In this document: in pieces, positions 18,816-47,787 of the stretch
Position numbering within the stretch: position 1 is the stretch's first letter
How the letters are laid out: the number at the start of each line of letters is the position of its first letter
Program-made: the position numbers and the translations under genes
NCBI GenBank assembly: GCA_965207455.1
Contig: CBDBMJ010000003.1
Span: 256,001 to 320,000, forward strand
DNA length: 64,000 nucleotides
Direction: 5' to 3'
Origin: Bdellovibrionota bacterium
Lineage (GTDB): Bacteria > Bdellovibrionota > UBA1018 > CAIPTA01 > JAALKR01
The notes under the pieces: model-generated
Database searches by the model: none
What the model was told of the DNA's origin: nothing
The model's input: the letters and a program-made list of their open reading frames with translations, nothing else

Positions 18816-18816
18816 A

Positions 18817-19134: not shown

Positions 19135-19138
19135 AACC

Positions 19139-19675: not shown

Positions 19676-19678
19676 AAA

Positions 19679-20122
19679 CTACTTATCCCCTCGCTGCATT
19701 AAAAGAAAGTTTTTATCATACACCCTACGTTCAAAATCTGCCATTTCATATATGGTGGAAAGTTTAATCGCATCCTTAGGACAAGCCTCTTCACAATATC
19801 CACAAAAACAACAACGTAGTATATCAATTTCGAATTTAATAGGGTACTTCTCCTTATTGGGTCGCTCACCAGCCTCAATATGAATACAATCTGCTGGACA
19901 GACCGTAGGACAAAGCATACAGGCCGTGCAATTCTCCACACCATTTGTAGTTTTAATATAGTGTTGGCCTCGAAAGATAGCGGAATAGGGCCTGCGTTGT
20001 TCAGGATATTGGGTAGTGATATTTTTTCCAAAAAACCAGTTCTTTATTGTGATAAAAAGCCCTTGGGCTAGCTCCACTAGATAAAATTTTTGTAATGTAG
20101 TGTCCTTTCGTTTAATTAACAT
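19679..20122 (-). CDS. nuoI: NADH-quinone oxidoreductase subunit I
   Basis: CTACMLCPTVCP and CCFCGYCEEACP. Confidence 0.96.
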   Translation of the reverse strand: MLIKRKDTTLQKFYLVELAQGLFITIKNWFFGKNITTQYPEQRRPYSAIFRGQHYIKTTNGVENCTACMLCPTVCPADCIHIEAGERPNKEKYPIKFEIDILRCCFCGYCEEACPKDAIKLSTIYEMADFERRVYDKNFLLMQRGDK

Positions 20123-20141
20123 AATTTAAAATCTCCTTCCT

Positions 20142-21239: not shown

Positions 21240-21243
21240 TGAC

Positions 21244-23924: not shown

Positions 23925-24392
23925 TTACTGTAACTCCTGTAATAGTTGTTTTACCTTTTCCGTATCTAAATTTTCTCTATACTCATCATTGACCTGACAA
24001 ACAGGAGCTGTGCCACAAGAACCCAAACACTCCACTTCACAAAGTGTGAACCTGCCATCCTTTGTAGTTTCATTGAGCTCAATACCCAGCGCGCCCTCCA
24101 CAAAATGGATAAGCTCTTCGGAACCTCGCAACCAGCAAGCAATATTATTGCAAAACTGCAAATGGTATTTGCCCGTGGGTTTCTTTTTGAGCATGGTATA
24201 GAAGGAAGCAACGGCCTTTACCTTGGGCTTGGGCAACTCCAGGGCCTCAGCAATTTCTCCCATTGTGCTGTCCGAGAGCCAACCCTCCTCTTTCTGTGCC
24301 GCATGGAAAACGGGCAAGAGAAGCGCTCCCTTGGTGGGATAAAACTTTTTCAGCCGATCTATTTCTTTATCAATGGCCTTTCTCACACTCAT
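23925..24392 (-). CDS. nuoE: NADH-quinone oxidoreductase subunit E
   Basis: CNNIAC and ECLGSCGTAP 2Fe-2S motifs. Confidence 0.96.
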   Translation of the reverse strand: MSVRKAIDKEIDRLKKFYPTKGALLLPVFHAAQKEEGWLSDSTMGEIAEALELPKPKVKAVASFYTMLKKKPTGKYHLQFCNNIACWLRGSEELIHFVEGALGIELNETTKDGRFTLCEVECLGSCGTAPVCQVNDEYRENLDTEKVKQLLQELQ

Positions 24393-25636
24393 CTATCCAA
24401 TTCTCCTGCAATAACATTTAAAGACCCCACAATGGCCACTAAGTCAGAAATTTTATAGCCCTGGCTAAGCTCAGGAACGGTTTGGAACATAAAAAAAGAA
24501 GGCGCCCGGATGCGAGTACGATAAGCCTTCGGACCTCCTTTACTGACAATATAAAATCCAACTTCTCCGTTGGGTCCCTCCATGGGACAGTATGCTTCAC
24601 CTTCAGGCACATCAAAGCCTTCCATAAAAAATTTAAAATGGTGGATCATGGCTTCCATGGAATTATATACCCGCTCTTTTTCGGGTATGACCACACGAGT
24701 ATCGTCGGACCAGATGGGCCCACCGGGCATTTTCTGCACAATCTGTTTTAACATTCGCACCGATTCCCGCATCTCCTCCATACGAACGAGGTAACGATCC
24801 AACACATCTCCACCCTGAGCAATGGGAACATCAAATTCCAACTCCTTGTATGCCAAGTAGGGTTCATCCCTGCGTAAATCAAAATTAATATTCGAAGCCC
24901 TAAGGCACGGACCAGTGACTCCATAACTCAAAGCCTGCTCCGGACTCATGCAACCAATCCCTCTCGTGCGATCTTTCCAAATACGATTATTGGTGAGAAG
25001 CTTATCCATTTCTGCTAGTGCTTCGGAAAATTCGTCCAACCATGTATCCAGCTCTGTTAGAAAACCGTCGGGAAGATCCTGCATCAGACCACCCACACGA
25101 GTGTAGGTGGTGGTAAGGCGAGAGCCACACATAGCTTCTATTAAATCATAGCAACGCTCCCTTTGGTGAAACCCGTATAGAAAGAAAGTCATCGCTCCCA
25201 AATCAAAGGCATTAATACCAACACAAATAAGATGATCAATGATTCGAGCCATCTCACAACTCATGGTTCGGATCCATTTATTTCGAGGAGTGAGTTCTAT
25301 ACCCAATAATTTTTCCACCGACGCCACGTAAGCCACATTGTTTTGAAGAGCGGAACAGTAATTTAATCTATCCGTAAAAGGAATAAATTGGTGGTACGTC
25401 CTCACCTCGGCAATTTTTTCAATTCCTCTGTGCAAAAATCCCAATTCACAGACAGACTTCTCCACCGTCTCTCCCCGCAGTTGAGTCATCACCCTAAGAG
25501 TGCCATGCATGGCTGGGTGCTGAGGACCGATGTTAATATTTATCTTAGAATTCTCGAAGACTTCATTGCCATCTTCAAAATCGTCACCATGAAACTGATT
25601 GGTCGTTTTTGGAAAATTTCTTTTATCGAAAACCAT
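24389..25636 (-). CDS. nuoD: NADH-quinone oxidoreductase subunit D
   Basis: IGPQHPAMHGTLR, GFLHRGIEK, DRLNY, FDLGA, GELDR. Confidence 0.98.
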   Translation of the reverse strand: MVFDKRNFPKTTNQFHGDDFEDGNEVFENSKININIGPQHPAMHGTLRVMTQLRGETVEKSVCELGFLHRGIEKIAEVRTYHQFIPFTDRLNYCSALQNNVAYVASVEKLLGIELTPRNKWIRTMSCEMARIIDHLICVGINAFDLGAMTFFLYGFHQRERCYDLIEAMCGSRLTTTYTRVGGLMQDLPDGFLTELDTWLDEFSEALAEMDKLLTNNRIWKDRTRGIGCMSPEQALSYGVTGPCLRASNINFDLRRDEPYLAYKELEFDVPIAQGGDVLDRYLVRMEEMRESVRMLKQIVQKMPGGPIWSDDTRVVIPEKERVYNSMEAMIHHFKFFMEGFDVPEGEAYCPMEGPNGEVGFYIVSKGGPKAYRTRIRAPSFFMFQTVPELSQGYKISDLVAIVGSLNVIAGELDR

Positions 25637-25654
25637 TTTTAATCCCCATGCCCT

Positions 25655-26233
25655 TTAGTCTTCCAGACCCGTTGCACTTATCTCCATGCCGTCGCTAAAA
25701 AACTGGTATCGCTTAATGGGATAATCTTTCCTAAGAGGATGATCCTCCCAACGATCGTCTAGCATAATTCGTCGCAAGTACGGATGACCAGAAAATCGTA
25801 TTCCGTATAAATCCCACACCTCTCGCTCCAACCAATTGGCACCCTTCCACAAACCACAAACCGACGGAACCTCTTCTCCATCGTCAACAGGAACCTTCAC
25901 ACGAATCCTATCTTTATTTTGAAGGGAGAGAAGATGATAAACCACGAAGAAGCGGGCACTGTCTCCCTCAGACTTAACCACACCTAAATTATAGTCGGGA
26001 ATAGTTACATGCTTGGGATTATGATCGTAGGCCGTTATGTCCGAAAGAAAGTTATACTCCAAGACTTCGTCCAGACGAATAAAATCAAGAAATTCAAATA
26101 TGTTTTCCTTTGCAATCAATACTATGGGACAATCTGTTTTCTCCAAACTCACCCCTTCAATAATTTTTGCATACTTGGAATGTAGTAGCTCTATCCTCGC
26201 CTTAGAAAAGTCGGACCCCAAAGAAACTGTCAT
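25655..26233 (-). CDS. nuoC: NADH-quinone oxidoreductase subunit C
   Basis: [28 protein letters not shown]. Confidence 0.97.
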
Positions 26234-26697
26234 AACTCCGCCTTACCCGTTCGTACTTTCTCCTGCAATCTCATCAAACCATGGAGAACACCCTCAGGGG
26301 TAGGCGGACAGCCCGGAATATACACGTCTACGGGAATAATTTCGTCCACTCCCTGCATAACACTATAGGTATCAAAAATTCCTCCCGAGGCAGAACAAGC
26401 TCCCATGGCCAATACCCACTTGGGATCGGCTATTTGATCGTAAATACTTTTTAGTACAGGCCCCATTTTATTTGTAATCGTTCCTGCAATGATCATCATG
26501 TCGCTTTGTCGGGGAGAAAAACGAACAACCTCGGCACCAAAGCGAGCCATATCATAATCGGCAGAAAGTACTGCCATCATCTCAATACCACAACAACTCG
26601 TACCAAATGGGTAGGGCCACATGGAATTGGAACGGGCCCAGTTGACAAGCTGATCTAATTTCGTGGTAACAATTTCTGGTGCGCCATCTTTTCCCAT
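26230..26697 (-). CDS. nuoB: NADH-quinone oxidoreductase subunit B
   Basis: [24 protein letters not shown]; likely start MGKDG at 26697. Confidence 0.97.
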
Positions 26698-26698
26698 A

Positions 26699-27061
26699 CT
26701 ACTCCCACTCCAATCCACCACTGCGCCACTCATAGACGAAAGCAACCGTGAGAATGGTTAAAAAGGCCAACATCGTATACAGGGAAAAAGTGTTGACTGC
26801 CAAGAACTGCTTATACACAAGAGCCCAGGGAAAGAGTAAAACCACCTCCACATCGAACAGCAGGAAAGAAATGGCAACGAGGTAGAAGCGAATGGAGAAG
26901 CGCTTATTTTCCTTGCGACTAGGGGGGACTCCGCACTCAAAAAAGGTATTTTTCATATCATTGGGGCGCTTGGGTCCCAGGAGACCTACAAGCAATATCG
27001 TGGAGGCTGCTATTACTACAGCGACTAAAAATAAAATAAGAATGGGTACATATGGAGACAT
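26699..27061 (-). CDS. nuoA: NADH-quinone oxidoreductase subunit A
   Basis: [22 protein letters not shown]. Confidence 0.97.
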
Positions 27062-27110
27062 TTTTTAACCCTAATAAAATTATGGTGACGGGAGATAGAT
27101 TACAACATTT

Positions 27111-28568
27111 TCAAAAAATTAAAAAGAGGCGAGCCTGTTTCAACAGTAATAATAGGAATTCTCCTCCCCAAAATCCCCATAATAACAGCGGAAGTAGGGC
27201 CAGAACCAAGGCTAGACGAGTAAGCGTGCCCTGTATGACTGGATCTGCCCGGGGAGTGCTTGCTGGGGGATCTTCAAAGAAGAGAACTGCCACCAAACGT
27301 GCAAAAATCATAACCTGAACCAGCAAATATAGTAGAAACAAGGAGAAAACCACGGGTTGACTCTGAGCAAAAATCGTTCCCAGCGCCTGGAGTGTGGAGA
27401 AAAAGCCCATCATGGGCGGCAACCCTGCCAAAGAAATCAATACCAAGAGTAAAAGAAAGCAGAAATAGCTTCGACCCATGCCGCATAATTCCTCCATTTT
27501 TTCTTTCTTTTGTGACAAGCAAAGGCCCCCAAGTATCCAGAAATACAGCACTAAACCCATACTGATGCTAATAAATTGAATTACGATGGTGGAAAGAACC
27601 TGGGCATTAATGCTGCTCATCACAACCAAAAGGGAAGACCACTGCATCAGGACTATATGGGCAGAAAAGCAGCGAATATTTTTTTGGGCCAGCGCACCAA
27701 AAGCCCCATAAAATAAACCACAAAAGCCACAAACCGTAAATCCCATTAAAATACTAAGCCCCATGGTGGATGCCTGAGTCTCCGTTTTCATAAAAAACAA
27801 AAAAATAACAATTTTGATCAGGGCCAAAACACCTGCCCCCTGGATCAATAACGACTGGATGGCCTGATCGAGCCAAGTGGAGTTCTGCCCCCTATTAATC
27901 CCAATAAAATGGAAGGGAAATAGGGCGCTCACACAGAAAAAGGGTAGGAACAGCATAAAGATAAGGGGAACCCCATACAGGCCGTTTAAGCCATGAATAT
28001 AGTTTTTGATTTCCGTGTATGTCAAAGAGTCCAGTTGCGTGGATAGAATCACTAAGACAGCAAAGCTTAAGCAAAAGCAAACACTGGATTGAAGGTAGGA
28101 CTGTGCGGATATTTTTCTCCCCTCCCTCCCAGACATGGCAGAAAGAAGAATAGAGAAAAGCATTAGGCCGGATAGGCAAATAAAAGAGACGAGTGCATGC
28201 TCAGATAGGAGTAATACAGAGGAGAAAAAAGCTATGTTGACAATAAAAAATGAAAATTCCGCTCCCTTGTTAAAGGAAAATTTTTCCGAATAGTGGGTGA
28301 AGAGCAATAATAATAAGGAAACCACAAAGAGTGTGAAGCGAACAAAGACAAATACGGGATTCAAGCCAATGGCAGAAGAAAATAAAGAGATATTTTCTGT
28401 CGGTTGATAATATAAGGTGCTGAAGGCTGCAAAAGACATTCCCAACAAAGATAGACCTCGAATGAAAGAACGAGACTTGCTCCCATCTCCAAATGCTAAA
28501 AAAAACAGGATCAGAAAGGATGAACCAAGGAGTGTTATCTCAGGCAATATGGGCAGATAAAAAGACAC
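27111..28568 (-). CDS. Divergent NuoN-like antiporter-fold subunit (second cluster)
   Basis: LPEITL N-terminus, LFPFH, GALAQKNIR, SLAGLPPMMGF; conserved Glu/Lys positions replaced. Confidence 0.8.
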   Translation of the reverse strand: MSFYLPILPEITLLGSSFLILFFLAFGDGSKSRSFIRGLSLLGMSFAAFSTLYYQPTENISLFSSAIGLNPVFVFVRFTLFVVSLLLLLFTHYSEKFSFNKGAEFSFFIVNIAFFSSVLLLSEHALVSFICLSGLMLFSILLSAMSGREGRKISAQSYLQSSVCFCLSFAVLVILSTQLDSLTYTEIKNYIHGLNGLYGVPLIFMLFLPFFCVSALFPFHFIGINRGQNSTWLDQAIQSLLIQGAGVLALIKIVIFLFFMKTETQASTMGLSILMGFTVCGFCGLFYGAFGALAQKNIRCFSAHIVLMQWSSLLVVMSSINAQVLSTIVIQFISISMGLVLYFWILGGLCLSQKKEKMEELCGMGRSYFCFLLLLVLISLAGLPPMMGFFSTLQALGTIFAQSQPVVFSLFLLYLLVQVMIFARLVAVLFFEDPPASTPRADPVIQGTLTRLALVLALLPLLLWGFWGGEFLLLLLKQARLFLIF

Positions 28569-29984
28569 CTATCCCCCTCCTAAAAGATTTAATGCTTCAC
28601 TCACAGCATAGGAAAAATAACGGGATAATAATCGAGGATAGATTGTGAGTAGAACTAGGCACCCACCCATGAAAAAACAACAAAGGGCATCCCAGGAGTG
28701 CAGGCGTAGTAAGGGCGCTCTCTCTTTTGCGTATTCTTCATGAAAAACCGGAGACAGGGAGCGGTAGCAAGAAACCACTAGGAGTAGTGCAAGGAACAAA
28801 ACGATGGGGAAAACAAAGATCGTCTCCTTAGCTGTGAGCCCGTAAAAAATCAAGAGCGTGCTGTGGAATCCAAAGGAAACGGGAAGACAGAACGCAGCCA
28901 GCATAGTATAGACGGAAAACAATAATAATTTTGGATTATTGGGCGCATTCCCTAAGTACCCATCCTTACTCCCTCGCTCACTGATATCTATTATGGTAAA
29001 TATGGCGGCAAGGATAAGAAATAAAAATATTCCCATCATCAAGGCTCCAACGAAGCCTTCTTTGTTTCCGGAGCTTATACCTAAAAATATAAGCCCACTG
29101 AAAATTTGTTGAAACAATACTATTTGATCTCTTAGAGAAGTGCACCGTAAAAGCAATAGCGCAGGCAGGAGCATGGACACTAAGCCCACTATAAAAAATA
29201 AAAATTGAAATTCCATAAACTCGTTGGAAAAATCAGGAAACAAAAAACGAAGAAATGCGTAGAGCCCGAAATTGTAAACAGTCATCACAGGCAATAGAAG
29301 AATTAAATTCTTTGCACTGGACAATCGTCTCAAAAGCCAGTGGAAAGGAATCATTTTTATAAAAAATACTCCAGAGAGGAGTGCAAAGATCAAATATTTC
29401 TTAGAGCCTACCTCAACAGCGGAGTAAAACTCTGGGTATAGAATAAAAAAGCAGACAAGCAATAAAAAAATACTAATTGTACTTATGAGCATAAATGGTT
29501 TACTGAGGCGTTTTAACTCTGTAGATCCATCCGTACCAATTAAAAAAGTAGCGGGGACGATGCACAGGGCAGAAAAGAAAAGAAAGGAAAACAGGGTTGA
29601 TGAGGCGTACATTCCTAAGACACCAAACTCCAGTAACATTAAAGAGATAATTTTACCTCCATTGAGTCTTTCTCGACCCACCAGCACCACCACCATAAAT
29701 ACAAGGCTAGTTACCCATAAAAAGGGTGAATTAAGAGCATCTGTCGCAAAGTTTGTATTAATATTCCAAAAACCGGACCAAGGGTACGCACCAACACCAG
29801 GTACTATTTTTTGTGTTACGGCAAGTGCCTCTAAAAACATCCATGTATGAGTTAGAAATATAAATATTGTAGATAGTGCCACAGAAGACCACAGCCAGGA
29901 GTTCGCTTTATTCCAAAATAAAAAGCCAATAGCGGCAAGCGCTAGGGGTAAAAAGATAGTAATTTGTAAAAAAAACTCTGGCAT
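28569..29984 (-). CDS. Divergent NuoM-like subunit, copy 2 (second cluster)
   Basis: FATDALN, LLEFGVLGMY, IPFH, FGLYAFLRF, LPVSFGF, TIYP; likely start MPEFF at 29984 (ORF track 30050). Confidence 0.75.
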   Translation of the reverse strand: MPEFFLQITIFLPLALAAIGFLFWNKANSWLWSSVALSTIFIFLTHTWMFLEALAVTQKIVPGVGAYPWSGFWNINTNFATDALNSPFLWVTSLVFMVVVLVGRERLNGGKIISLMLLEFGVLGMYASSTLFSFLFFSALCIVPATFLIGTDGSTELKRLSKPFMLISTISIFLLLVCFFILYPEFYSAVEVGSKKYLIFALLSGVFFIKMIPFHWLLRRLSSAKNLILLLPVMTVYNFGLYAFLRFLFPDFSNEFMEFQFLFFIVGLVSMLLPALLLLRCTSLRDQIVLFQQIFSGLIFLGISSGNKEGFVGALMMGIFLFLILAAIFTIIDISERGSKDGYLGNAPNNPKLLLFSVYTMLAAFCLPVSFGFHSTLLIFYGLTAKETIFVFPIVLFLALLLVVSCYRSLSPVFHEEYAKERAPLLRLHSWDALCCFFMGGCLVLLTIYPRLLSRYFSYAVSEALNLLGGG

Positions 29985-29986
29985 AA

Positions 29987-31453
29987 TCAGTAAACAAAAC
30001 CCAAGAGTCCCACACTCCCAAGCCAGGAAATCAAACAAAAGAAAAGGCAAAGTGTGGCTAGTTTATAGTTAGCCTGCCAAGCCTCTCCCTTACTGTTAGA
30101 TTTACCCTGAACATCAATGTCCTTTCCAAATCCATGATCGAAAAAAAATATTCTGTAACCGCAATAAGTGAGTATGGTAGAATACAATGTCCATAATAGG
30201 ACTAGCAAAATAGAATGCTGAAGACTGGAATCAAAAATTACAGCGCCGGGCAAGGCAAAAATATAATACACAGGAGTCCCGGGAATACTCACTAAAAAAA
30301 CAAAGATGAGGAGAAATGTGGCTTTGTTGAGCGACCCTAGAAAATCATTATCGCATAAAAATCGAATGAAAACGGATAATACGGGAATGGTAATGCTGAT
30401 TAAGTATACAGATTGAAAATTTTCCGGCGAAAAGAAGCCTATAGAATAAAAGGCCATCCCCAGAAAAAAAACAATAATGCTCCCCAAAGCTCTTTCTTTA
30501 TATCCAGCTGCGCACAATAAATAACCGGAGAAAATTGCCATAAAAAATCCAAATATAGATATATTTCTCAAAAAAATCTGGCTCTCTTTGGGCAGGATAG
30601 AAACTATTTCATTAAAAATAAATAGAATGGCGCCCATAAAGATACAAAATGGAATGGAAATGATAGAGGAAATTTTTTTCTCTTCTCTTTCTGAATTGAA
30701 AATACCCATAAACCACGCAGACCAAAAACACAGGGGAAGAGAGAGGGCAAATGCGCTCACTAGAAAAAGGATGGTCCACAAATCTCCATCGAACGTTGCA
30801 CCAGAAAGCGGAGCAGAAAACACAGCTGCAAAAGAACTAAAATTCAAGGAGCTCATTTCAAAAACAAAGGATAGGGACACCAAAGATAAGAGCATTACAA
30901 TACCTCCAGAGATCTGAAGCAAAGCTGCCAACTCTCCATGCATTTCCTTTTTTGCCTTGCCAGCATCCACCTTAATATCCTGACAATAAAACAAGCGCAA
31001 CAGGAGAAACAAAACAATGCTAATAACTATGTGAAGTATGGAAATTAAAAGTAAATTTTCACAAACCACGTAAAAACTAATCAGCCCTTTAAAAAAAATA
31101 AGTAGAGATATGGCTCCCACAGACACTTTTTGCTTTTTGTAATAGTCTTGGAACAAGAGGAATAATACCAGAAAACATGCGTCAAAAATAAGAAGTAAGA
31201 AGGCATTCCTTGAGGTCAATGCCACCTCCCAAGCTATTCCCATCATGGGTAAAAATGGGGCAGAGTCTCTCAAAGGGGCACCTCCCTGTAATAAATGAGA
31301 AAGAAAGAAAATCAAAATAAGGCAAGAGAAGAAACTGGTAAATACACCGCACAGAGCATTCCACCGGTGCCCATAAAAAAATATATACTGAGCACTCCCA
31401 ACGATTAAGGGTGCTAGCAAAAATATCCAAAAAAGCGGTATATATAATTCCAT
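29987..31453 (-). CDS. Divergent NuoM-like subunit, copy 1 (second cluster)
   Basis: 488-aa polytopic protein; AFALSLPL..W and SIPGT align with NuoM TM7 and TM12; lies between the L-like and M-like genes. Confidence 0.62.
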   Translation of the reverse strand: MELYIPLFWIFLLAPLIVGSAQYIFFYGHRWNALCGVFTSFFSCLILIFFLSHLLQGGAPLRDSAPFLPMMGIAWEVALTSRNAFLLLIFDACFLVLFLLFQDYYKKQKVSVGAISLLIFFKGLISFYVVCENLLLISILHIVISIVLFLLLRLFYCQDIKVDAGKAKKEMHGELAALLQISGGIVMLLSLVSLSFVFEMSSLNFSSFAAVFSAPLSGATFDGDLWTILFLVSAFALSLPLCFWSAWFMGIFNSEREEKKISSIISIPFCIFMGAILFIFNEIVSILPKESQIFLRNISIFGFFMAIFSGYLLCAAGYKERALGSIIVFFLGMAFYSIGFFSPENFQSVYLISITIPVLSVFIRFLCDNDFLGSLNKATFLLIFVFLVSIPGTPVYYIFALPGAVIFDSSLQHSILLVLLWTLYSTILTYCGYRIFFFDHGFGKDIDVQGKSNSKGEAWQANYKLATLCLFFCLISWLGSVGLLGFVY

Positions 31454-31457
31454 TTCT

Positions 31458-33239
31458 CTATCCCGTTAGTATCAGTAGTACAACCATAGTCAAAATAAAA
31501 AAAACAGAGAAAAATAAATATGCTCTAGCAGCGCTATTTTGCACGCGTTGGACAAAATGAGATAAAGAGTGAGCAAGAACGGCGCTGCCATTCAAGAGAA
31601 CATTCATAATAACTGTTCCATCCAGACAGTTTATTTTTTTAGATACAAAATCCAAAAAAACCAATATTTTTTTTTGAGAAGCGGTCAAAATACTGGATTG
31701 TATATGGAAAACAAAAATATTGACTTTATCTAAAATATTATACATATAGGGTACTCCCTCCGATTCAAGGATCTCCCTTTTTCTTGAAAGATAAAGAGAA
31801 AACTTTTGACTTTTAGCTAGCCCTCCCCCTAGGAAAAAACCAATCACGGTCAGGAACACTATGGATGCAGCGGTATATAACATAATACTGGACGACTCTC
31901 CTGTCATAGTGGGCAAAATTCCATTCGTTCCCGAATAGACCCACTCCAATAAAGTTCCTCTCATCAAAGGCTCATTGCCCACTAAGAGAATGAAAATACC
32001 CAAATATACGCTAATGTCCTTAGATGGTATCTGCCTATCTATCTTCCAAAACTCCTCGTCATCTCCAGTCGTGAGCAAGAGCCTAGAGAATACACCTGTA
32101 AGCAATAACGATTGGAGGCACAGGAGAATAAACAGAGCCAAGTCCACTGACCCTATCCTATTGAAAAACAAAAATAATGCTGAACCCGGAAATCCTACAA
32201 TAATTAAATGGGCAATGCTGGCCACAAGTAGTGGGATTTTCCTCTGAGCACCTCGCAGCTTCACATTAGATAAAGTTAAACAGATACATTGCAGGGATAG
32301 TAAAACAAGACAAATAGCGAAAGCTATATTAATGGCATTATCAGGTGAAAAATGGATTAAAAAAATAAGATTTAAGGACAGGACGGACAGAATATAATTT
32401 TTAATGGAATGGGTTCCTTTACTAGCTAGGAGCGCACGCACAGCACAGAAGATAGAAAATATAGCTAGTAGATAACTATACACACCCAGATAAATATCAT
32501 CCAGACCTGTGCCAATGGCTTTCCTCTGTAAAGCAAAACAAGCTAAAAACAGGAGAACTTGGGGAAGATGATCAAACCAAGAAATATATTTCGAGCGAAA
32601 GGAAATTACTGTAATAATGTATAGTAATAATCCTCCGTTCATAAAATTCCAGATGGAAAATATCTCTTCAAAGGAAAGTATAAAAACTAAAAAAATAACT
32701 AAAAAAACAAATATTTTTTGCTTGAAGAAATCAAGCATCTCCACCCCATGAGACATTTTTCCCTCAGCTCTCATACCAAGAAAATAAGCTAGAAATATTA
32801 GCAACTCCACGAATACTAAAACAGGCACCATCGTTGTGATAAGAATGGATAGGTTACTAAAAATAAATAAACATAATAATACGGGAAACCGAGATACTCT
32901 GTTTTTCTCTTTATAAAAATCAGGGAATGCCAATGTGCCAAAAAATAAAAGGAGAGAACTTCCTAAAATCCAACACACACTTTCCTCATTCAGTAAAAAC
33001 TGGAGTTCAAATTGCGAAGGAATTTTCAAAAAATTCAAGGAAAGGGCGAGGGGAGAAAAAAAAGAATCCACCCCCATCAAGGCAATGGCACTGACTAGAA
33101 TAGGTATAAGAAAAACCATCAAGGAAAGGTAGTAAGAACTAAGCCATGACGCTCTGTTGGGAAAGAAAACCATAGTAATTCCATAGATCGCCGGTACGAT
33201 AATGGACGCGCCAAAGATAAAATAATGAATTAGACTCAT
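31458..33239 (-). CDS. Divergent NuoL-like subunit (second cluster)
   Basis: 593-aa polytopic protein; VFVELL (TM5 Glu), GFPG, and NuoL-type C-terminus (DGTVI...QRVQNS..AYL plus last TM). Confidence 0.65.
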   Translation of the reverse strand: MSLIHYFIFGASIIVPAIYGITMVFFPNRASWLSSYYLSLMVFLIPILVSAIALMGVDSFFSPLALSLNFLKIPSQFELQFLLNEESVCWILGSSLLLFFGTLAFPDFYKEKNRVSRFPVLLCLFIFSNLSILITTMVPVLVFVELLIFLAYFLGMRAEGKMSHGVEMLDFFKQKIFVFLVIFLVFILSFEEIFSIWNFMNGGLLLYIITVISFRSKYISWFDHLPQVLLFLACFALQRKAIGTGLDDIYLGVYSYLLAIFSIFCAVRALLASKGTHSIKNYILSVLSLNLIFLIHFSPDNAINIAFAICLVLLSLQCICLTLSNVKLRGAQRKIPLLVASIAHLIIVGFPGSALFLFFNRIGSVDLALFILLCLQSLLLTGVFSRLLLTTGDDEEFWKIDRQIPSKDISVYLGIFILLVGNEPLMRGTLLEWVYSGTNGILPTMTGESSSIMLYTAASIVFLTVIGFFLGGGLAKSQKFSLYLSRKREILESEGVPYMYNILDKVNIFVFHIQSSILTASQKKILVFLDFVSKKINCLDGTVIMNVLLNGSAVLAHSLSHFVQRVQNSAARAYLFFSVFFILTMVVLLILTG

Positions 33240-33256
33240 ACTCCTAGCACCTCAGA

Positions 33257-33547
33257 CTATCCCTCTTTTCCATGATCTGTTTCTCTATCTCTTGTCATCA
33301 AAGACAGACTTGCTATAAAAAATAAAATACAGAAAAAGATACCCACAAAAACTAAAATGGAAAGCATTTTAATTTTTTCTGGAAACATGGTTAACCATAT
33401 GATAGCTGCGTATGCGCAGGCTTTGAGAGAAATAATTTGACCCAGAACGATAGAAATAAATGCCTGCCTTGCCATCATCATTCCCAGACCAATGCAAAAA
33501 ATTCCCGCTGCAATGATAAGATGAATTTTCAAAAATAATAGATCCAT
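33257..33547 (-). CDS. Divergent NuoK-like subunit (second cluster)
   Basis: ~100 aa, 3 TMs, IFCIGLGMMMAR matches NuoK TM1; syntenic; likely start MDLLF. Confidence 0.7.
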   Translation of the reverse strand: MDLLFLKIHLIIAAGIFCIGLGMMMARQAFISIVLGQIISLKACAYAAIIWLTMFPEKIKMLSILVFVGIFFCILFFIASLSLMTRDRETDHGKEG

Positions 33548-33555
33548 ACCACCTA

Positions 33556-34047
33556 TCAATCTTTAGAGCCAACAGTGGCAAGCGCGCCTATGGAAGCCGG
33601 TGCAACAATGAACATACAGAGAAGAATAAATTTCCAGTTTTCTCCCAAAAAAGAATTTTCCGAATATGCCAAAACACTTCCAGATGCCGTATCTATTTCA
33701 GGAATACTCATTCCATTCCAAGCACCCCATACCACTAAACACCCGATAAAAGAAACAAAGCACATCATGACTACTAGATAGAATCGCTCCCAACCTTCGA
33801 TTTTTATCTTATTTTCTGGCAGCAAATTTGTGGAGAATATAAAGAATAATAAAATCAAATCTAAGATTAAAAAAATTGGTGTTACCCAGAGCAGGATACT
33901 TACTTTTAATAAAAAATAAGCTAGCAATGATATATTGCATGTTAGGATAGCAGAAGAGATAAGTACTGCAGATTTAGATGGTGAAAATGCCATTGCTAGA
34001 GCAACCACAATCGCCACAACACCAAATAGTATGAGAATAACCTGCAT
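33556..34047 (-). CDS. Divergent NuoJ-like subunit (second cluster)
   Basis: 163 aa, 5 hydrophobic segments, FFIFSTNL and ASIGAL echo NuoJ; syntenic. Confidence 0.65.
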   Translation of the reverse strand: MQVILILFGVVAIVVALAMAFSPSKSAVLISSAILTCNISLLAYFLLKVSILLWVTPIFLILDLILLFFIFSTNLLPENKIKIEGWERFYLVVMMCFVSFIGCLVVWGAWNGMSIPEIDTASGSVLAYSENSFLGENWKFILLCMFIVAPASIGALATVGSKD

Positions 34048-34052
34048 TTTCC

Positions 34053-34544
34053 CTATCTCCTTATCTCGTAATAACGAATCAATTGTTTTTTCTTCTTTTG
34101 ATAGGACTTATCTGTAACCATTCCTGAAAAATTAAAAACAAGACCAGAGCGATAAAAAGCGCCTATTTCATAATCATTAGTATGAACGATACTTTTCACA
34201 GGGCATATATCCACGCAAATGGAGCAAAAAACGCATTTTCCAAAATCTATCCAAAAATCATTTACTTTCATAGAGCCGTCCATCTTAATTCCAGAATCCA
34301 TGCCAATGGCTTGCGACGGACATGCCTGTACGCATTCATTGCAACCAGTACATACCTGAAGATCATTTTGTAATAGCCCCCTTGCCCTAGAGTTCGGGCC
34401 CTTAAACATTTGCAAGGAGGAAACTTCTGGGTAGGCTTCTGTGAAGCGCTGGAATTTTGCCTTCCTAGAAAAAGTGTATGGCAATAATGACAAAACAGCA
34501 GTCCATATTTCTCTTATCTTATAGATTATATTAGATTTCTCCAT
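34053..34544 (-). CDS. NuoI-like 2x[4Fe-4S] ferredoxin subunit (second cluster)
   Basis: TEAYPE, CTGCNECVQACP, IDFGKCVFCSICVDICP; start MEKSN behind GAGGAGG. Confidence 0.9.
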   Translation of the reverse strand: MEKSNIIYKIREIWTAVLSLLPYTFSRKAKFQRFTEAYPEVSSLQMFKGPNSRARGLLQNDLQVCTGCNECVQACPSQAIGMDSGIKMDGSMKVNDFWIDFGKCVFCSICVDICPVKSIVHTNDYEIGAFYRSGLVFNFSGMVTDKSYQKKKKQLIRYYEIRR

Positions 34545-34551
34545 ATCCTCC

Positions 34552-35439
34552 TCAAGCACCCAAGTAAAAAACAAGCCAAAAAAGTTCTCCCACAAAAGCT
34601 AAAAAAATAGCTGGCAAAATTTTCTTAAATCCAAACTCCCATGCATCTTTTGTTCTCATAAAGGGAAAGGAATTTTGTATCCACAGGAACGCAAACAATG
34701 TACTCACTAAAACCAGGAAGAAAACGGAAAGTCCCTTTATGGTATATATGGGGAAAATAATATTAATATGTAAAATGACAAGCAGGGCAGCAAGATTAAT
34801 TATCCACAGGATAGTGGATAGATGATAAATCCCATCCCACATCCCATTAAATTTCCTTCCGCTGCCATCGATGAACGGGGAAGAGGGAACAATAAAAAAT
34901 AAAGAAAGAAACCCACATAGAAAAGACAAAACGCTAAACGGACTAAAAATTACTTCATTGCTTTTATTATTCAAGTACAGCAAGGCCGGAAGCGTGGAAG
35001 GAATATACAAAGCTATACCAAATACACGAGATAAACCCAATCGTTGTGAGAAAATAAAAACATCTTTATTTTTAAAATAAAACAAAAACAAACTATCTAT
35101 CATAATTGCAAAAAGTAAAATAGAATACAAAGATAGGACTTTCTCATAGAGCAGGCGAGCTTCCTGCGTAAAGGAAAATAAGATAAAGCAGAATAAATAG
35201 GGCAGTGCAAGCCCCAGGAAAATGGCAAAAATAAAGAAAATACTTTCTTTTCCTCTCGTCTCTGCTCGTCTTTTGCTCATTTGTTTTATAAAATCTAGCA
35301 ATACTTGATAAGTGCCTCCAAAACCCGATCTACTAATTCCAATTCTCTGCTGCGTTTTTGCTGCCAGACCTCGCTCCATGGATAAATACAAATAGGCTGC
35401 CATATTGAGTGCTAAAAATAAAAAGAAAATAAAACTCAT
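34552..35439 (-). CDS. Divergent NuoH-like subunit (second cluster)
   Basis: MERGLAAKTQQRIG...GTYQVLLDFIK and FPFMR...KILP; only 295 aa. Confidence 0.8.
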   Translation of the reverse strand: MSFIFFLFLALNMAAYLYLSMERGLAAKTQQRIGISRSGFGGTYQVLLDFIKQMSKRRAETRGKESIFFIFAIFLGLALPYLFCFILFSFTQEARLLYEKVLSLYSILLFAIMIDSLFLFYFKNKDVFIFSQRLGLSRVFGIALYIPSTLPALLYLNNKSNEVIFSPFSVLSFLCGFLSLFFIVPSSPFIDGSGRKFNGMWDGIYHLSTILWIINLAALLVILHINIIFPIYTIKGLSVFFLVLVSTLFAFLWIQNSFPFMRTKDAWEFGFKKILPAIFLAFVGELFWLVFYLGA

Positions 35440-35441
35440 TA

Positions 35442-36536
35442 CTACCGCTCCACCTCAGACATGGAAATATCAAAATTATGAATAATTAGAGGAGCATCTT
35501 CCAGCGCTTCCTTTAATAACACTTGAGGCAAAAACTTCAGCATAAAAAAAGAAGGTGTAGAAAATTTCACACGAGCTGGCTTACTGGACCCATCACTAGA
35601 AACAAATACACCCAAAGCTCCTCTGGCACTCTCCACCTCTGCATAAGCACCCCCACGAGGAGGGCAAAAATCCATGCCAATGGAAACGAAAAAATTCCCT
35701 GGCGGTATTCGACTAGCCCCTTGCCGGATGATGGCTATGCTCTGCTGGATTTCCCGAAACCTATAGAGAAAGCGATCAAAACAATCCCCATCCTGTTTCT
35801 TAGTCCAGTGGATGGGCACAAAAAGATCGGAGTACGCTGCGTAGGTTTTTGCCTTTCTAATGTCTAACTCTCCTCCTGAGCATCGAGCGTTTGCGCCGGT
35901 AATACCATGTTCTTTTACTTTCTCTGGAGACAAAATAGCTAAACCGGTTAATCTCTCATAAAAAATAGGATTTTTTACTAAAATATTATCTAATTCTAAT
36001 AGAAAAGACTCCGTATCACACAAGGTCTTTTCTATTCTATGTAAAAGACCTTCACTCATATTATTCCTAACTCCACCAATACAAATGGAGCCAAATGGAA
36101 TTCTAGAACCACAATACATCTCAAATATATCTAAATACTTCTCTCTTTCTCTTAAGCTAAAATGATGTATGTTTTTTGAACCAACACAGAGAGAGACCTG
36201 AGAAATATAGTTCAAGTGACTAACAATCCTGCTCAATTCCAATAATATAACTCGAATAAAATCTGCCTTCAACGGCACTCGTATGCCTCCCAGCTTCTCC
36301 ACAGCTAGAGCAAAAGCAAGATTGCAGGCTGGAGCAGATAAATAATCCACTTTATCAGAATAAACAAGGCCCACCATATAGGGCACTTTTTCAAAGCACT
36401 GTTCGATTCCTCGATGACAATACCCCAGATCAATCTCGGCACTTTGGATCAACTGCCCATTCACCTGTGTTTTTAGCACAAATGGTCCAACTGTACTGGA
36501 ACTCTGTTTTATTCCTGGTATGATATTTATTTCCAC
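35442..36536 (-). CDS. Divergent NuoD-like subunit (second cluster)
   Basis: GYCHRGIE, DKVDY, ELSRIVSHL, ESARGALG, DISMSEVER; no NiFe CxxC motifs. Confidence 0.9.
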   Translation of the reverse strand: MEINIIPGIKQSSSTVGPFVLKTQVNGQLIQSAEIDLGYCHRGIEQCFEKVPYMVGLVYSDKVDYLSAPACNLAFALAVEKLGGIRVPLKADFIRVILLELSRIVSHLNYISQVSLCVGSKNIHHFSLREREKYLDIFEMYCGSRIPFGSICIGGVRNNMSEGLLHRIEKTLCDTESFLLELDNILVKNPIFYERLTGLAILSPEKVKEHGITGANARCSGGELDIRKAKTYAAYSDLFVPIHWTKKQDGDCFDRFLYRFREIQQSIAIIRQGASRIPPGNFFVSIGMDFCPPRGGAYAEVESARGALGVFVSSDGSSKPARVKFSTPSFFMLKFLPQVLLKEALEDAPLIIHNFDISMSEVER

Positions 36537-36538
36537 AA

Positions 36539-36943
36539 CTAAGGCAAGTCCTCTCTCAATAAAAACGGCTGAGGATGGAGCATATCTTTAAATTTCACCT
36601 TAAACATTTCCCGTATCTCCCGTTCAAACCAATTTGCAATCGGCCACACTTTCTCCACGCTGGAAATAGATTTTGTGTTTGGAACACTAGTACATACACT
36701 TAAATAATTATCCCAAAGGGAGGAACTCAACCCTGTAATTATTAAAGTTTTGGAGTCACTTTCCTTCATCGCTGTCAAAAAACACAAACGATGAAATAGA
36801 AGCTTTTCTTCTTTATATAAGAGCTCCAATGATTGCACCCAATCCTTATCATCCACATCTATGATTATATGCTGATTCTCTTCACGAATATTCCAAGCAC
36901 TGTTTGCTTGCTGGAGTTCTTTAATTAGATCTGCTTGCTTCAT
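36539..36943 (-). CDS. NuoC-like subunit, short (second cluster)
   Basis: VWPIANWFEREIREMFKVKF. Confidence 0.85.
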   Translation of the reverse strand: MKQADLIKELQQANSAWNIREENQHIIIDVDDKDWVQSLELLYKEEKLLFHRLCFLTAMKESDSKTLIITGLSSSLWDNYLSVCTSVPNTKSISSVEKVWPIANWFEREIREMFKVKFKDMLHPQPFLLREDLP

Positions 36944-37397
36944 CTAGCTTACGCCCCATAAAAATTTTCTTTTGTAATGCGTGTATCCCGTGGATTAGGG
37001 CTTCTGGCTTCGGTGGACACCCAGGAATATAAACATCCACGGGCAAAATAAGATCCACCCCGTTTATTACTGTGTCGCTATGAACAGAAAAAATTCCTCC
37101 TGTATTAGCACAGCTTCCCATGGAAATTACATATTTAGGTTCCAACATTCCATGGTATAGTTCTTGGACTTTTCTCGAAATAGCTTTAGTAATAGGGCCA
37201 GCCACAATTAAAAGATCCGCGTTTCTATAATCATCTTGTGGCAAAAGGCCAAATCGCTCCAAATCATAACGAGGTCCTGTGCTTGCTGTAAACTCCAAGG
37301 CGCAACAAGATAAACTGAGAGGAAAGGCCCAGAGAGACCGGCCATGCACTTTTGAAAAAATCTTTGATGTATTAGAAAGAAAAAGATCCGTTTTCAT
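36921..37397 (-). CDS. NuoB-like [4Fe-4S] subunit (second cluster)
   Basis: [36 protein letters not shown] overlap with the upstream gene. Confidence 0.92.
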   Translation of the reverse strand: MKTDLFLSNTSKIFSKVHGRSLWAFPLSLSCCALEFTASTGPRYDLERFGLLPQDDYRNADLLIVAGPITKAISRKVQELYHGMLEPKYVISMGSCANTGGIFSVHSDTVINGVDLILPVDVYIPGCPPKPEALIHGIHALQKKIFMGRKLDEASRSN

Positions 37398-37771
37398 TTT
37401 TGCAACCAATGAATACTCATGATCCAGTTCAAAAATTTTCTCCTAGATCCATAAGCAAAAATCAAACCCAAGAGAACTGGCCCCAATACTATTTTTATTA
37501 ATGTCAAAGTGGAATCTTCAACTCTTAGTGATAAATAATTCTGAAAGCTTAGGGCCATGGGAACGATAAAAATAAGACATGCCCAGGTGATTAAAACATA
37601 GATAAGAAAATAAATATCCTGCGGAGCTTCTCCATGGTTTCGAGCCTTCTGGAAGCGAGGTGAACGATAAAAATAGCCTAAGGGGCTGGAAAGGGAATAG
37701 GTGGCAACGGCTACGATCAAAAGAACGAATAACGCAAATAGTAAAAAACCAGAATCTATGAAAACTTGCAT
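37394..37771 (-). CDS. Divergent NuoA-like subunit (second cluster)
   Basis: 125 aa from MQVFID, 3 TMs, FIVPMA and YGSRRKFLNW echo NuoA; first gene of the cluster. Confidence 0.65.
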   Translation of the reverse strand: MQVFIDSGFLLFALFVLLIVAVATYSLSSPLGYFYRSPRFQKARNHGEAPQDIYFLIYVLITWACLIFIVPMALSFQNYLSLRVEDSTLTLIKIVLGPVLLGLIFAYGSRRKFLNWIMSIHWLQK

Positions 37772-37901: not shown

Positions 37902-40900
37902 ATGGACTTTTTTTTACCCAGTTTTACTAACAGCCATCAATGGATCAAAAGCAAGCAAACAATTATTATTTCTGGCCTATATGGATCTAGCCAAGCCCTC
38001 GTTTTAGCCCAACTTTTAGCAAAGGAAAAAAGGAATTATTTAATTGTTTGCGATAAATCTAGTACTGCCCATACTTTGGTTCAAGAACTCCACACCTGTT
38101 TAACTTTTTTTCCAAACACTGTCCAAGTTTTATTATTTCCTAGCTGGGAAATTTCTCCCTATAGCAAACTTGCACCCAATCCCACCAATCGCTTGCAACG
38201 TTTGCGTTGCTTAAATGCTTTACACTCTTCCAGCAAAAAGTCCGTAGCTGTGATTGCTCCCATTCAAGCCATTACTCAACCCACACTTAGTCCTACGAGT
38301 TATAAGAAAAGAATTATTCCCTTACAGCCGGGAAGCGTGTACGAAATTCCATCTCTTGAGGAAAAACTTCAAGCCCTAGGCTATACCCAAGCGGATCTAG
38401 TAGAGGATCCGGGCACCTATGCAATACGAGGTGGAATTATGGACATCTATTCCTGCGTGGAACCCTACCCCATTCGACTAGATTTTATGGACAATGAAAT
38501 AGAGAGTATTCGCCTCTTTAATCCCATAAGCCAACGAAGTCAGGAAAAATCTTTCTTGAACATTGCTCATATTGGACCCACCAGAGAAATAGAATTATTC
38601 CCAGAAGAAGTGGAAACAGCAAGATCAAAAATACGAGCTTGGTGCGATCAAAACCATATATCCAGAGCCAATCGGGAACGACTCAATAATCAACTTAAAG
38701 AAAATATTATAACCCCAGAAATGGATTTCCTCATCCCGTTCTTTAGTAAAACTCCGGGCTATCTATGGGAATACTTTTCCAGCGACTCTTTGTGGACCTG
38801 GGTATCTGCCGACGATGTAAGAGTGCGCTTGCTGGAAAGACAGGAGAAATTAAAACTGGAATATGAGATGGCACTTACAGAACAGTCAATTATAGCGCCC
38901 AATGAAGAAATTTCCCTAGATTATGCTTCTCTTGTGGAAGCCAGTAAAAAATTTCAAAATCTCCGCCTAGAACCTCTAGACATACGAAGTAAAGAAGAAG
39001 CACAAAGAATCCATTTGAAAATCACACCTAATAATAAGGTACGTGGAATAACAAAAAGAAATAAAACGGAGAGTGCAGATTTCGACAAAGTAACAGAATA
39101 TATAGAGGAGTTGCTAGAGCTAAACTATAGCATCTTTTTTATGGCAAACTCAAAATCCCAATTGGATAGACTTTCCTTCCTTTTAGCGCAAAAGGGCATA
39201 CCAAACAAACAACTAAGCCCCAAAGAAATGCCTCAGAAAAAAATGCTAACCATGGTTTTGGGTACCTTAGAATCTGGATTCCAAATGGATGTAGACAGGG
39301 TGGTGTGCCTCACTGAGGATGAAATTTTTGGAGCAAAAAAACATTCGGAAAAACAGCGCACTCGCCCGAAAGATTTCTTCTCCAAGCACCTTGCCAAAAC
39401 GAGCTTAGATAATTTATTTAAAGATGACTTTCTAGTTCACATAGAACACGGCATCGGCAAATACAAAGGACTCATTAAATTAATTACTAGCGGCATTCCA
39501 GGAGACTATGTCCATATAGAATATGCCGGAAAAGACAGGCTCTATCTCCCCATATATAGATTAGAACAAATACAAAAATATATCGGGCCTGCGGATTCTC
39601 GCCCACCAGTAAATAAATTAGGCTCCCAGCATTTTGTGAAAGCAAAAAGTAAAGCAAAGGCAGCAGTAAAAGATATTGCAGCCTCTTTATTAAAACTCTA
39701 TGCCCAACGAGCTTCCGTATCCGGATATGCCTTCCCTGAACCGGACGATGAATACAAAAAATTTGAAGCCTGTTTCCCCTACGATGAAACCCCAGATCAA
39801 CTGCAAGCAATTGAAGAAACAATTAAAGATATGTGCACACCTAAACCCATGGATCGATTAATCTGTGGAGACGTGGGCTATGGGAAGACAGAAGTGGCAA
39901 TGCGAGCTGCTTTTTTAGCTGCCTATTCAGGAAAACAAGTGGTCATTCTAGTTCCAACCACTATTTTAGCTGAGCAACACCTGTATAATTTCAAAATAAG
40001 ATTCCAATCAATCCCCTTTGTTATAGAATCTCTTTCTCGATTTAAAAAACAAAAGGAACAAAAAGTAATTCTAGAGCAACTAAAAAATAAAAAAATAGAT
40101 ATTATAATTGGCACCCATCGCCTACTTTCAAAAGATGTTGCCTTCAAAGATTTAGGTCTACTGGTTATTGATGAAGAACAACGTTTTGGTGTGGAAAATA
40201 AAGAAAGACTCAAAAAATTTCGCCTCTCTGCTGATGTGCTAACTCTCACAGCAACACCCATACCCAGAACCCTACACCTTTCACTGGTTGGTATGCGAGA
40301 TATTAGTATTATCCACACCCCACCCGCAGAACGTCAATCCATCCGAACTTACCTTGCTGAGTTTGATAAAGAAATAATTAAAAAAGCCATTATTTTCGAG
40401 TTGAGCCGAGGAGGGCAAGTTTTCTTTATTCACAACAGAATACAATCCATGCCCATCATTCTAAATGCATTAAAAGAAATATTGCCAAAAATTAAGATAG
40501 CTGTAGCTAACGGAACTTTGCCTGAAACTCAACTAGAAAAAATAATGACCGGCTTTTATAAAAAAGAATTCGACGTACTCCTATCCACCGCTATTGTCGA
40601 AAATGGACTCGATATACCCAATGCTAATACCATTATTGTGAATCGAGCTGATGCTTTTGGCTTGTCACAGCTCTACCAAATCCGAGGACGAGTGGGTCGG
40701 TCGAAAAATCGAGCCTATGCCTACCTATTAACCCCTAAAGATATTACTCCTAGTGCAAGAAATAGGTTGCAAACTCTCCAACAACATACTGCTTTAGGTA
40801 GCAGCTTTTCCATTTCCTCCCGAGATTTAGAGCTTCGAGGTTCTGGGGATATTGTTGGCGGGGCTCAGTCGGGCCATGTAACCTCTATCGGTTACGATAT

Positions 40901-47773: not shown

Positions 47774-47787
47774 ACATTGCGCAATGT
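47774..47787. promoter_or_regulatory. Perfect 14-bp palindrome upstream of the large lipoprotein gene (operator candidate)
   Basis: acattgcgcaatgt; related half-site gcgcagtg just upstream. Confidence 0.35.

Follow-up and report, generated by a model that had tools for sequence, protein, structure and literature searches.

What can a second set of complex I genes be for, when it lies beside a normal one, has kept the ligands of its iron-sulfur (Fe-S) clusters and has lost the residues associated with proton pumping? The question is raised by a stretch of 64,000 nucleotides from a Bdellovibrionota bacterium (assembly GCA_965207455.1, contig CBDBMJ010000003.1, positions 256,001-320,000 of the forward strand), referred to below as the window. 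An earlier note on this DNA had described an intact 'ghost' complex I of 12 genes, with its Fe-S wire kept and its proton-pumping axis erased. We use the term canonical for the normal nuo operon and name the subunits of the ghost cluster A' to N', following their order in the window. As judged from sequence comparisons, the cluster appears to be a paralog of complex I of the 11-subunit kind, which has no NADH module, and would no longer be a proton pump or a canonical quinone reductase. The reading that we favour, with a probability of about 0.5, is that it encodes a selected, non-pumping, Fe-S-centred complex-I-like assembly that would carry electrons or sense redox state, with its membrane arm serving as a scaffold.

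Gene content of the ghost cluster

Twelve open frames, all on the minus strand between positions 27111 and 37771 (37876 with the longest frame of A'), touch or overlap one another in the order A'-B'-C'-D'-H'-I'-J'-K'-L'-M1'-M2'-N'. These frames and their Pfam and NCBIfam matches agree with the previous description of 12 full-length genes, A-B-C-D-H-I-J-K-L-M-M-N, next to a normal complex I operon. The set corresponds to A, B, C, D, H, I, J, K, L, M and N without E, F and G, plus one extra gene at the M position; the relatives of the cluster in families f4 and f8 have exactly 11 genes. No nuoE, nuoF or nuoG was found among the 12 ghost genes, the sole copies in the window being those of the canonical operon. 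Pfam recognized seven of the 12 products above cut-off (B', C', D', H', I', N' and M2'); K' stayed under the cut-off, and M1', L', J' and A' had no match at all.

To compare residues, each ghost subunit was aligned with MAFFT to the canonical paralogs of two genomes and to the products of eight orthologous ghost clusters. The ghost locus was read in nine genomes of the order (eight for A', one copy of which is cut by a contig end). In other families of the class, residues were read in three sequences of what we call the second cluster, from f4 (G109, G074) and f8 (G022).

Fe-S ligands and the quinone site

The four Cys ligands of cluster N2 are all present in B' of the window, which is 43% identical to canonical NuoB, and they are kept in 13 of the 14 ghost or second-cluster sequences over which the Fe-S ligands were counted. 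The eight Cys of I' that hold N6a and N6b are kept in 14 of 14, meaning that the retention of all 12 cluster cysteines in NuoB' and NuoI', claimed for the window, extends to nearly every sequence read. The one departure is B' of genome G002 (L008 13564-13998, minus strand), in which three of the four N2 Cys are changed into Phe, Ser and Asn; the other 11 ghost genes of this genome are intact and its I' retains all eight Cys. As a separate observation, the I' orthologs share a basic C-terminal tail of the IRTYEVRR type (IRYYEIRR in the window), which is found neither in canonical NuoI nor in the I protein of the f4 and f8 second clusters.

The quinone site tells a different story. We take the His, Tyr and Asp of this site in NuoD to be those equivalent to H38, Y87 and D139 of Thermus thermophilus Nqo4. 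In D', which is about 30% identical to canonical NuoD, the His of the beta1-beta2 loop and the Asp are replaced in all nine ghost genomes, the Tyr being kept in seven and changed into Phe in two. The second-cluster D proteins have likewise lost the His and the Asp (3/3) and keep the Tyr in one case out of three. This loss adds to the substitutions already listed for the membrane subunits and modifies the idea of an Fe-S wire that has been kept: the ligands are indeed retained, but the wire ends in a pocket devoid of the His and the Asp, and in G002 it lacks three of its four N2 Cys. An ancestry of D' among the group 4 membrane-bound [NiFe] hydrogenases or their MBX-MBS relatives was considered and rejected, as the protein has none of the N- and C-terminal Cys pairs with which their large subunit binds NiFe (no CxxC near the N-terminus, and a Cys-free end, ...DISMSEVER) and stands in a complex I gene order.

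C' is the least constrained ghost gene, with dN/dS values (ratios of non-synonymous to synonymous rates) of 0.24-0.37. The gene has degenerated in G003 and G004, and the f5 remnant described below lacks it. G004 (L021 4984-6283) also deserves mention in its own right, since its C' measures 90 aa without detectable NuoC likeness and its D' carries a deletion together with a branch of 2.98 in the NuoD tree, all 12 frames being open.

Residues of the membrane arm

As the canonical axis we take E. coli NuoM E144/K234/K265/E407 and NuoN E133/K217/K247/K395. In N', the Glu of transmembrane helix (TM) 5 and the Lys of TM7, TM8 and TM12 are all replaced in the nine genomes (E>S, K>V, K>Q and K>T in the window), the PFH motif of TM7 being retained. 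M1' has likewise lost all four axis residues (TM5 Glu, TM7 Lys, TM8 Lys and TM12 Glu) in 9/9. For M2', the TM5 Glu, the TM8 Lys and the TM12 Glu are replaced, and a Lys or Arg stands at or near the TM7 position in three of the nine sequences; the window is one of the three, with a register made uncertain by a 2-residue gap. No conserved charge in a hydrophobic context was found in M2'. Both Glu of NuoK, the Tyr motif in TM3 of NuoJ (VYAGA, absent from J') and the acidic residues of NuoA (those of FECG and FDVE, absent from A') are replaced in every ghost and second cluster read. H' has lost the acidic TM5-6 loop and retains the N-terminal ER..Q.R.GP and C-terminal PR.R..D motifs. The substitutions that the earlier note had listed for N', M1', K', J' and A' were thus all reproduced; those of M2' held at TM5, TM8 and TM12 but not cleanly at TM7.

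Other charges, located in hydrophobic contexts, are conserved in the membrane arm. Asp63 of J', Lys46 in TM2 of K' and the TM5-like Glu145 of L' are invariant (9/9), position 115 of H' is always Asp or Glu, Glu285 of H' is present in 8/9, and position 91 of M1' is Asp or Glu in 8/9. The proposal that the proton axis is erased therefore stands as far as the canonical translocation residues are concerned, but has to be qualified by the presence of new invariant charges in J' (D63), K' (K46) and L' (E145).

Four of the membrane subunits call for comment because Pfam does not recognize them. M1' gave a probability of 0.7% when compared by hhalign with canonical M, and L' one of 0.3% with canonical L, the canonical profiles consisting of two sequences each. 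Its AlphaFold2 model (pLDDT 69.6, pTM 0.75) nevertheless predicts that M1' keeps an antiporter-like fold: Foldseek matched it to NdhF, NuoL, NuoM and MrpD at TMq values of 0.58-0.68, with 130 matches at E<=1e-3. The core of L' could not be aligned to NuoL. A profile built from the nine L' sequences found only 37 proteins among 1.84 billion representatives, all of about 570-600 aa or fragments; the L' model is poor (pLDDT 50.9) and its best Foldseek matches, NuoL, ND5 and Mrp chains at TM-scores of 0.31-0.37, are a weak hint. Atlas language-model features placed L' at 0.93 to Proton_antipo_M clusters. L' may be the counterpart of NuoL, as suggested by its position, its length, a weak C-terminal likeness, these features and Foldseek on a poor model. 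The reported disappearance of the KSAQ..WLPDAM, HAFFK and FSKD motifs from L' accordingly means only that no similarity to NuoL is detectable; the TM5 Glu said to be kept is the invariant E145. Besides, some of the clusters closest to L' in the Atlas feature space are made of 'hypothetical protein' entries about as long as L' and occur most often in Dormiibacterota and Chloroflexota, a hint that degenerate NuoL-like proteins of this sort may exist in other phyla.

For A', no Pfam match was obtained in the window or in any of the eight ghost orthologs, and the A proteins of the f4 second clusters fell just under the Oxidored_q4 cut-off. Its start most likely lies at 37771 rather than at the first possible start, 37876, giving a product of 125 aa as in the orthologs. 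J' gave no Pfam match in any of the nine ghost sequences; the J proteins of the f4 and f8 second clusters match Oxidored_q3 in all three cases, two of them above cut-off.

Selection on the ghost genes

We looked at whether the cluster is conserved or decaying. A profile of N' gave a strong, stop-free match in 10 of the 11 genomes of the order, always at about 13.3 kb from canonical nuoN; in the eleventh, G006, which is in 430 contigs, it matched the canonical gene only. In the nine genomes in which the locus was read, all 107 ghost frames are uninterrupted and their lengths are conserved; one A' is truncated by a contig end. The relatives that carry the cluster are uncultured metagenome-assembled genomes (MAGs), and the same synteny is found in independent MAGs from different records.

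The proteins themselves diverge rapidly. Between families, canonical proteins are 51-85% identical and ghost proteins 20-55%, B', D' and I' being the most conserved ghost genes and J' and K' undetectable by BLAST. In the closest pair of genomes, G010 and G005, dN ranges from 0.10 to 0.45 for ghost genes (0.72 for C') as compared with 0.03-0.08 for canonical A, B and D and 0.26 for canonical C. The corresponding pairwise dN/dS is about 0.06-0.20 for ghost genes (0.37 for C') and about 0.03 for canonical ones; since dS exceeds 1.3 or is undefined even in this pair, these ratios are rough upper-level estimates. Ghost genes thus evolve 3-6 times faster than canonical genes and, with dN far below dS, appear to be under clear purifying selection. 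Retention under selection, as first proposed, agrees with these data, and the search for orthologous clusters recovered the same tandem layout in 10 of the 11 genomes of the order with no frameshifted decay.

Distribution and origin in the class

The layout made of mfd, a second cluster and canonical nuoA also occurs in other families of this Bdellovibrionota class. The second cluster of f4 and f8 has a single M; its J and K are recognizable by Pfam, its A nearly so and its L not. It is already degenerate, having lost the His and Asp of D, both Glu of K, the TM5 Glu of M and N and the acidic residues of A; a family-specific mosaic of Lys or Arg survives in TM7, TM8 and TM12. In f5 (G016, L047 8118-14669), a remnant lies between mfd and canonical nuoA. 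It consists of a short A-like gene, B, D, an H-like gene, I, a J-like gene and an N-like gene of 477 aa preceded by two plus-strand genes; K, L and M are gone and all the Fe-S Cys are present. The core kept in every lineage is therefore B-D-H-I. The canonical operon of G016 has, between nuoC and nuoF, two plus-strand open reading frames in the place of nuoD and nuoE, which are absent from this locus.

Profile searches show how widespread these genes are. An f4-type L profile has matches in 61 of 127 genomes of the class, and of 102 genomes sampled in the class, 95 have a second-cluster-type NuoI at E <=4e-34. Elsewhere in the phylum, 18 of the 299 genomes sampled gave matches, at E 1e-21 to 1e-27 only. 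A NuoD tree separates the proteins of the ghost and second clusters, which sit on long branches, from the canonical and external ones with supports of 100/99. Ghost terminal branches measure 0.12-0.83 (2.98 for the outlier G004) as compared with 0.08-0.16 for the canonical sequences of the order. Altogether, these data indicate that the 12-gene cluster is the extreme form of an older, class-wide and already degenerate second cluster, and not a peculiarity of this genome. Being preserved by selection across the class, the cluster must do some other job.

Organization of the locus

The ghost cluster lies 49 bp upstream of the normal 14-gene nuo operon (Table 1), and the gap ahead of canonical nuoA measures 17-162 bp in the 10 other loci read. 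A scan found no terminator-like or promoter-like sites in the gap of the window, but such sites were overall no commoner than in shuffled sequences, and the scan is uninformative on co-transcription. From the arrangement, we infer that the ghost cluster may be co-transcribed with the canonical nuo genes. Shine-Dalgarno-like motifs precede D', H', J', L', M1' and N'. The divergent neighbour on the other side, mfd, is outside the system and is a conserved synteny anchor, the same neighbour being found in G001, G003, G008, G016 and G022. Nothing about function could be gathered from the genes around the ghost cluster, namely mfd, two PPIase/SurA-like genes, a gene for a TPR protein and that for seryl-tRNA synthetase.

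Table 1. Positions of the ghost genes and of the adjoining features in the window
Feature	Positions	Strand	Evidence or remark
A' (NuoA position)	37394..37771	-	Position and size; 125 aa from ATG 37771; longest frame from 37876
B' (NuoB/PSST-like)	36921..37409	-	Pfam Oxidored_q6 1.1e-26; NCBIfam NuoB over cut-off
C' (NuoC-like)	36539..36943	-	Pfam Complex1_30kDa 4e-17; 134 aa vs 192
D' (NuoD/49-kDa-like)	35442..36536	-	Pfam Complex1_49kDa 1.7e-60; remodelled quinone pocket
H' (NuoH-like)	34552..35439	-	Pfam NADHdh 2.2e-13
I' (NuoI/TYKY-like, 2x[4Fe-4S])	34053..34595	-	Fer4 5e-12; TIGR01971 1.4e-22, under its cut-off
J' (NuoJ position)	33556..34047	-	Position; Asp63 invariant (9/9) in a hydrophobic helix
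K' (NuoK-like)	33257..33559	-	Pfam Oxidored_q2 E 0.0017, under cut-off
L' (NuoL position)	31458..33239	-	593 aa; no Pfam match (0/9)
M1' (first antiporter-like copy, NuoM position)	29987..31453	-	No Pfam match (0/9)
M2' (second NuoM-like copy)	28569..30050	-	Pfam Proton_antipo_M 2e-6; TIGR01972 4.8e-23, under its cut-off
N' (NuoN-like)	27111..28568	-	Pfam Proton_antipo_M 7.7e-7
N'-nuoA gap	27062..27110	-	49 bp, N' stop to canonical nuoA start
Canonical nuoA-N operon, 14 genes	13799..27061	-	All axis residues present
mfd (TRCF)	37902..41405	+	Pfam DEAD, Helicase_C, TRCF, UvrB_inter, CarD_TRCF_RID; divergent neighbour

The canonical operon looks ordinary, its NuoM matching that of Paracoccus at 2e-133. 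Its NuoG (21244-22641, minus strand) is 465 aa long and seems to be without most of the C-terminal molybdopterin-like domain; the NuoG proteins of Thermus and E. coli have 783-908 aa. The G+C content of the ghost cluster is 0.36-0.40 (28001-36000), like that of the flanking genome, and that of the canonical operon 0.41-0.46 (14001-26000). Further away, a DDE transposase gene (DDE_Tnp_1_5, DDE_Tnp_1; 11356-12297, minus strand) lies about 1.5 kb past the end of the canonical nuo operon, and a protein of 1666 aa (47784-52784, plus strand) combines an endonuclease/exonuclease/phosphatase domain with MtxA-type Ig-like repeats and a matrixin-type metalloprotease domain.

Possible functions of the ghost complex

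According to the reading that we favour, the ghost proteins would assemble into an L-shaped particle whose working, constrained part would be the Fe-S core B'-D'-H'-I'. This core would carry electrons, or sense redox state, between a soluble partner and the remodelled pocket of D' and H', without redox-driven pumping. The arm formed by L', M1', M2' and N' would be a passive membrane scaffold held by the C-terminal helix of L' and its anchor, and the Asp of J' and the Lys of K' probably form a structural ion pair.

Several points weigh against this proposal. The B' of G002 has lost three of the four N2 Cys and dN is still far below dS, meaning that electron flow through N2 cannot be essential there. 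POR_N (2-oxoacid:ferredoxin oxidoreductase), the usual source of reduced ferredoxin, was not found in this 94.7%-complete genome, so the electron donor is not evident and the idea of a ferredoxin-linked valve is weakened. The invariant membrane charges (J' D63, K' K46, L' E145, and Asp or Glu at position 115 of H') leave room for ion handling. If the long arm were a mere scaffold, the cost of maintaining four large subunits, with one more gained by duplication, would be hard to explain. Finally, the residue equivalences were drawn from aligning highly divergent sequences and not from structures, and A', J', L' and M1' are assigned by position, size and predicted fold, with no sequence statistics.

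If the Fe-S clusters served for folding only, the ghost complex might be inert in redox terms and act on the true complex I as a structural or regulatory partner (assembly platform, membrane organizer or supercomplex component, for instance), both being expressed from the same 26-gene transcription unit. Its constant position directly upstream of canonical nuoA, with a gap of 17-162 bp that is terminator-free in the window, speaks for such a role, as do the whole cluster retained by G002 after the loss of its N2 ligands, the disappearance of the catalytic quinone-site residues in every lineage and the lack of an obvious electron donor encoded in or beside the cluster. We nevertheless consider this explanation doubtful, since cysteines conserved in 14 of 14 I' and 13 of 14 B' sequences over a very deep divergence go beyond what a scaffold needs, the Fe-S subunits are the slowest-evolving ghost genes, and f5 dropped K, L and M and retained B-D-H-I. 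A complex that is still an energy-converting ion pump, with rewired residues in place of the canonical Glu/Lys chain, seems unlikely to us. The conserved charges of J', K', L', H' and M1' point in that direction, together with the TM7 Lys or Arg of M2' (3/9) and the mosaic of TM7, TM8 and TM12 Lys or Arg in f4 and f8. However, conserved charges are absent from hydrophobic contexts in M2' and from the axis positions in N', and no continuous path can be traced through the four subunits; the retained residues vary by family, the membrane subunits are 20-30% identical between families as compared with 56-69% for the canonical ones, and the redox site that should drive pumping is itself disabled.

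A complex that borrows the single canonical NuoEFG module, and works as an uncoupled, non-pumping NADH dehydrogenase tuning the H+/e- ratio as NDH-2 does in other bacteria, is quite improbable in our opinion. The cluster is encoded in tandem with the only nuoEFG genes, it retains the N6a/N6b/N2 chain that would take electrons from NuoG, and no ferredoxin-generating POR_N enzyme was found. On the other hand, the quinone site is without its His and Asp and its Tyr varies, hence normal quinone reduction is unlikely; moreover, C' is truncated and poorly conserved, and NuoC is part of the N-module docking region in known structures. D' also has an EMYCG motif in common with the EFG-less 11-subunit enzymes, though the tree places it apart from them. 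As for a slowly decaying pseudogene cluster or an assembly artefact, one could invoke the very fast divergence, the four products out of 12 without a family match, the degenerate C' of some lineages, the damaged D' of G004 and the loss of N2 in G002. The open, length-conserved frames (107/107 in nine genomes), the stop-free N' matches (10/11), the excess of dS over dN, the invariant Cys ligands and the synteny shared by independent MAGs make this explanation very hard to believe.

Besides the Fe-S-centred assembly that we favour, a broader view can be put forward tentatively, in which the whole complex would be a 'pseudo-enzyme': an L-shaped, Fe-S-bearing twin of complex I, dead both in catalysis and in energy conversion, which a bacterial class would have maintained for perhaps hundreds of millions of years. 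Co-expressed with the working enzyme, it would act together with it and not as an oxidoreductase, for example by joining it in a supercomplex, by helping in its assembly or by braking it in response to redox state. It is conceivable that the partly degenerate 11-gene clusters, the fully degenerate 12-gene clusters and the B-D-H-I remnant trace the evolution of this twin in that order.

Complex I is among the most conserved molecular machines, and the residues lost here are those underlying all current coupling models. A natural version without the quinone-site residues and the Glu/Lys chain, beside the working enzyme, provides a ready-made test of the scaffold without the chemistry, for which the different families supply graded intermediates useful in structure-function work. 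Almost all the genomes sampled in the class keep a ghost-type second cluster next to the working enzyme, which raises the question of other uses for an L-shaped Fe-S membrane complex. In practical terms, metabolic reconstructions counting 'two complex I' in these Bdellovibrionota overestimate their proton-pumping capacity.

Comparison with known systems

We found no account, in the literature searched, of a degenerate second complex I in this phylum. Two nuo clusters are mentioned in Peredibacter, without residue loss or this locus in the portion of the article available to us (PMC13147790), and the Bdellovibrio operon is called only 'split' in the accessible portion of another (PMC4758237).

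The same subunit set without N-module is found in 11-subunit enzymes, such as those of Desulfitobacterium hafniense and the cyanobacterial NDH-1, the ghost cluster differing from them by its extra M and by the absence of the canonical pumping residues. In D. hafniense, complex I-like enzymes lacking NuoEFG are presented, in the part of the text that could be consulted, as rotenone-sensitive, ferredoxin-fed entry points for electrons (PMC11238625). D' has the EMYCG and FG.IC.GG motifs in common with the 11-subunit-type NuoD of Clostridia, Chloroflexia, Thermoanaerobaculia and Marinifilum, at 34-37% identity. Unlike D', which has lost the His and the Asp, the external 11-subunit NuoD of these groups and of Acidobacteriota retain GPQHPSTHG, DY and the Asp. 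In the NuoD tree, the external sequences group with canonical D, apart from the ghost and second clusters (100/99), an arrangement in which long-branch effects are possible. With the canonical 14-subunit enzyme of its own genome, the ghost cluster shares the gene order, the NuoB and NuoI Fe-S ligands and the overall set of core folds; it differs by the lack of E, F and G, of the axis residues and of the quinone-site residues, and by the fact that L', M1', J' and A' are unrecognizable by sequence.

A '2M' type of complex I, with a second NuoM and a lengthened NuoL, was reportedly described by Chadwick et al. in 2018. This type raises the number of protons pumped, as stated in the available part of a further source (PMC6606698). 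The ghost cluster likewise has two consecutive M-position genes between L and N, and no N-module; both of its M copies are without the pumping residues, and L' has 593 aa as compared with 650 for canonical L. A lengthened lateral helix could not be seen in the L' model, the quality of which is too low (pLDDT 51). The cyanobacterial NDH-1MS and NDH-1MS' complexes (NdhD3/NdhF3/CupA) and the DAB complexes are a precedent for antiporter-like subunits turned to another job than plain respiration-linked pumping. They are described as still coupling proton or redox energy to CO2 hydration and as having a dedicated catalytic partner; the ghost cluster is accompanied by no partner gene.

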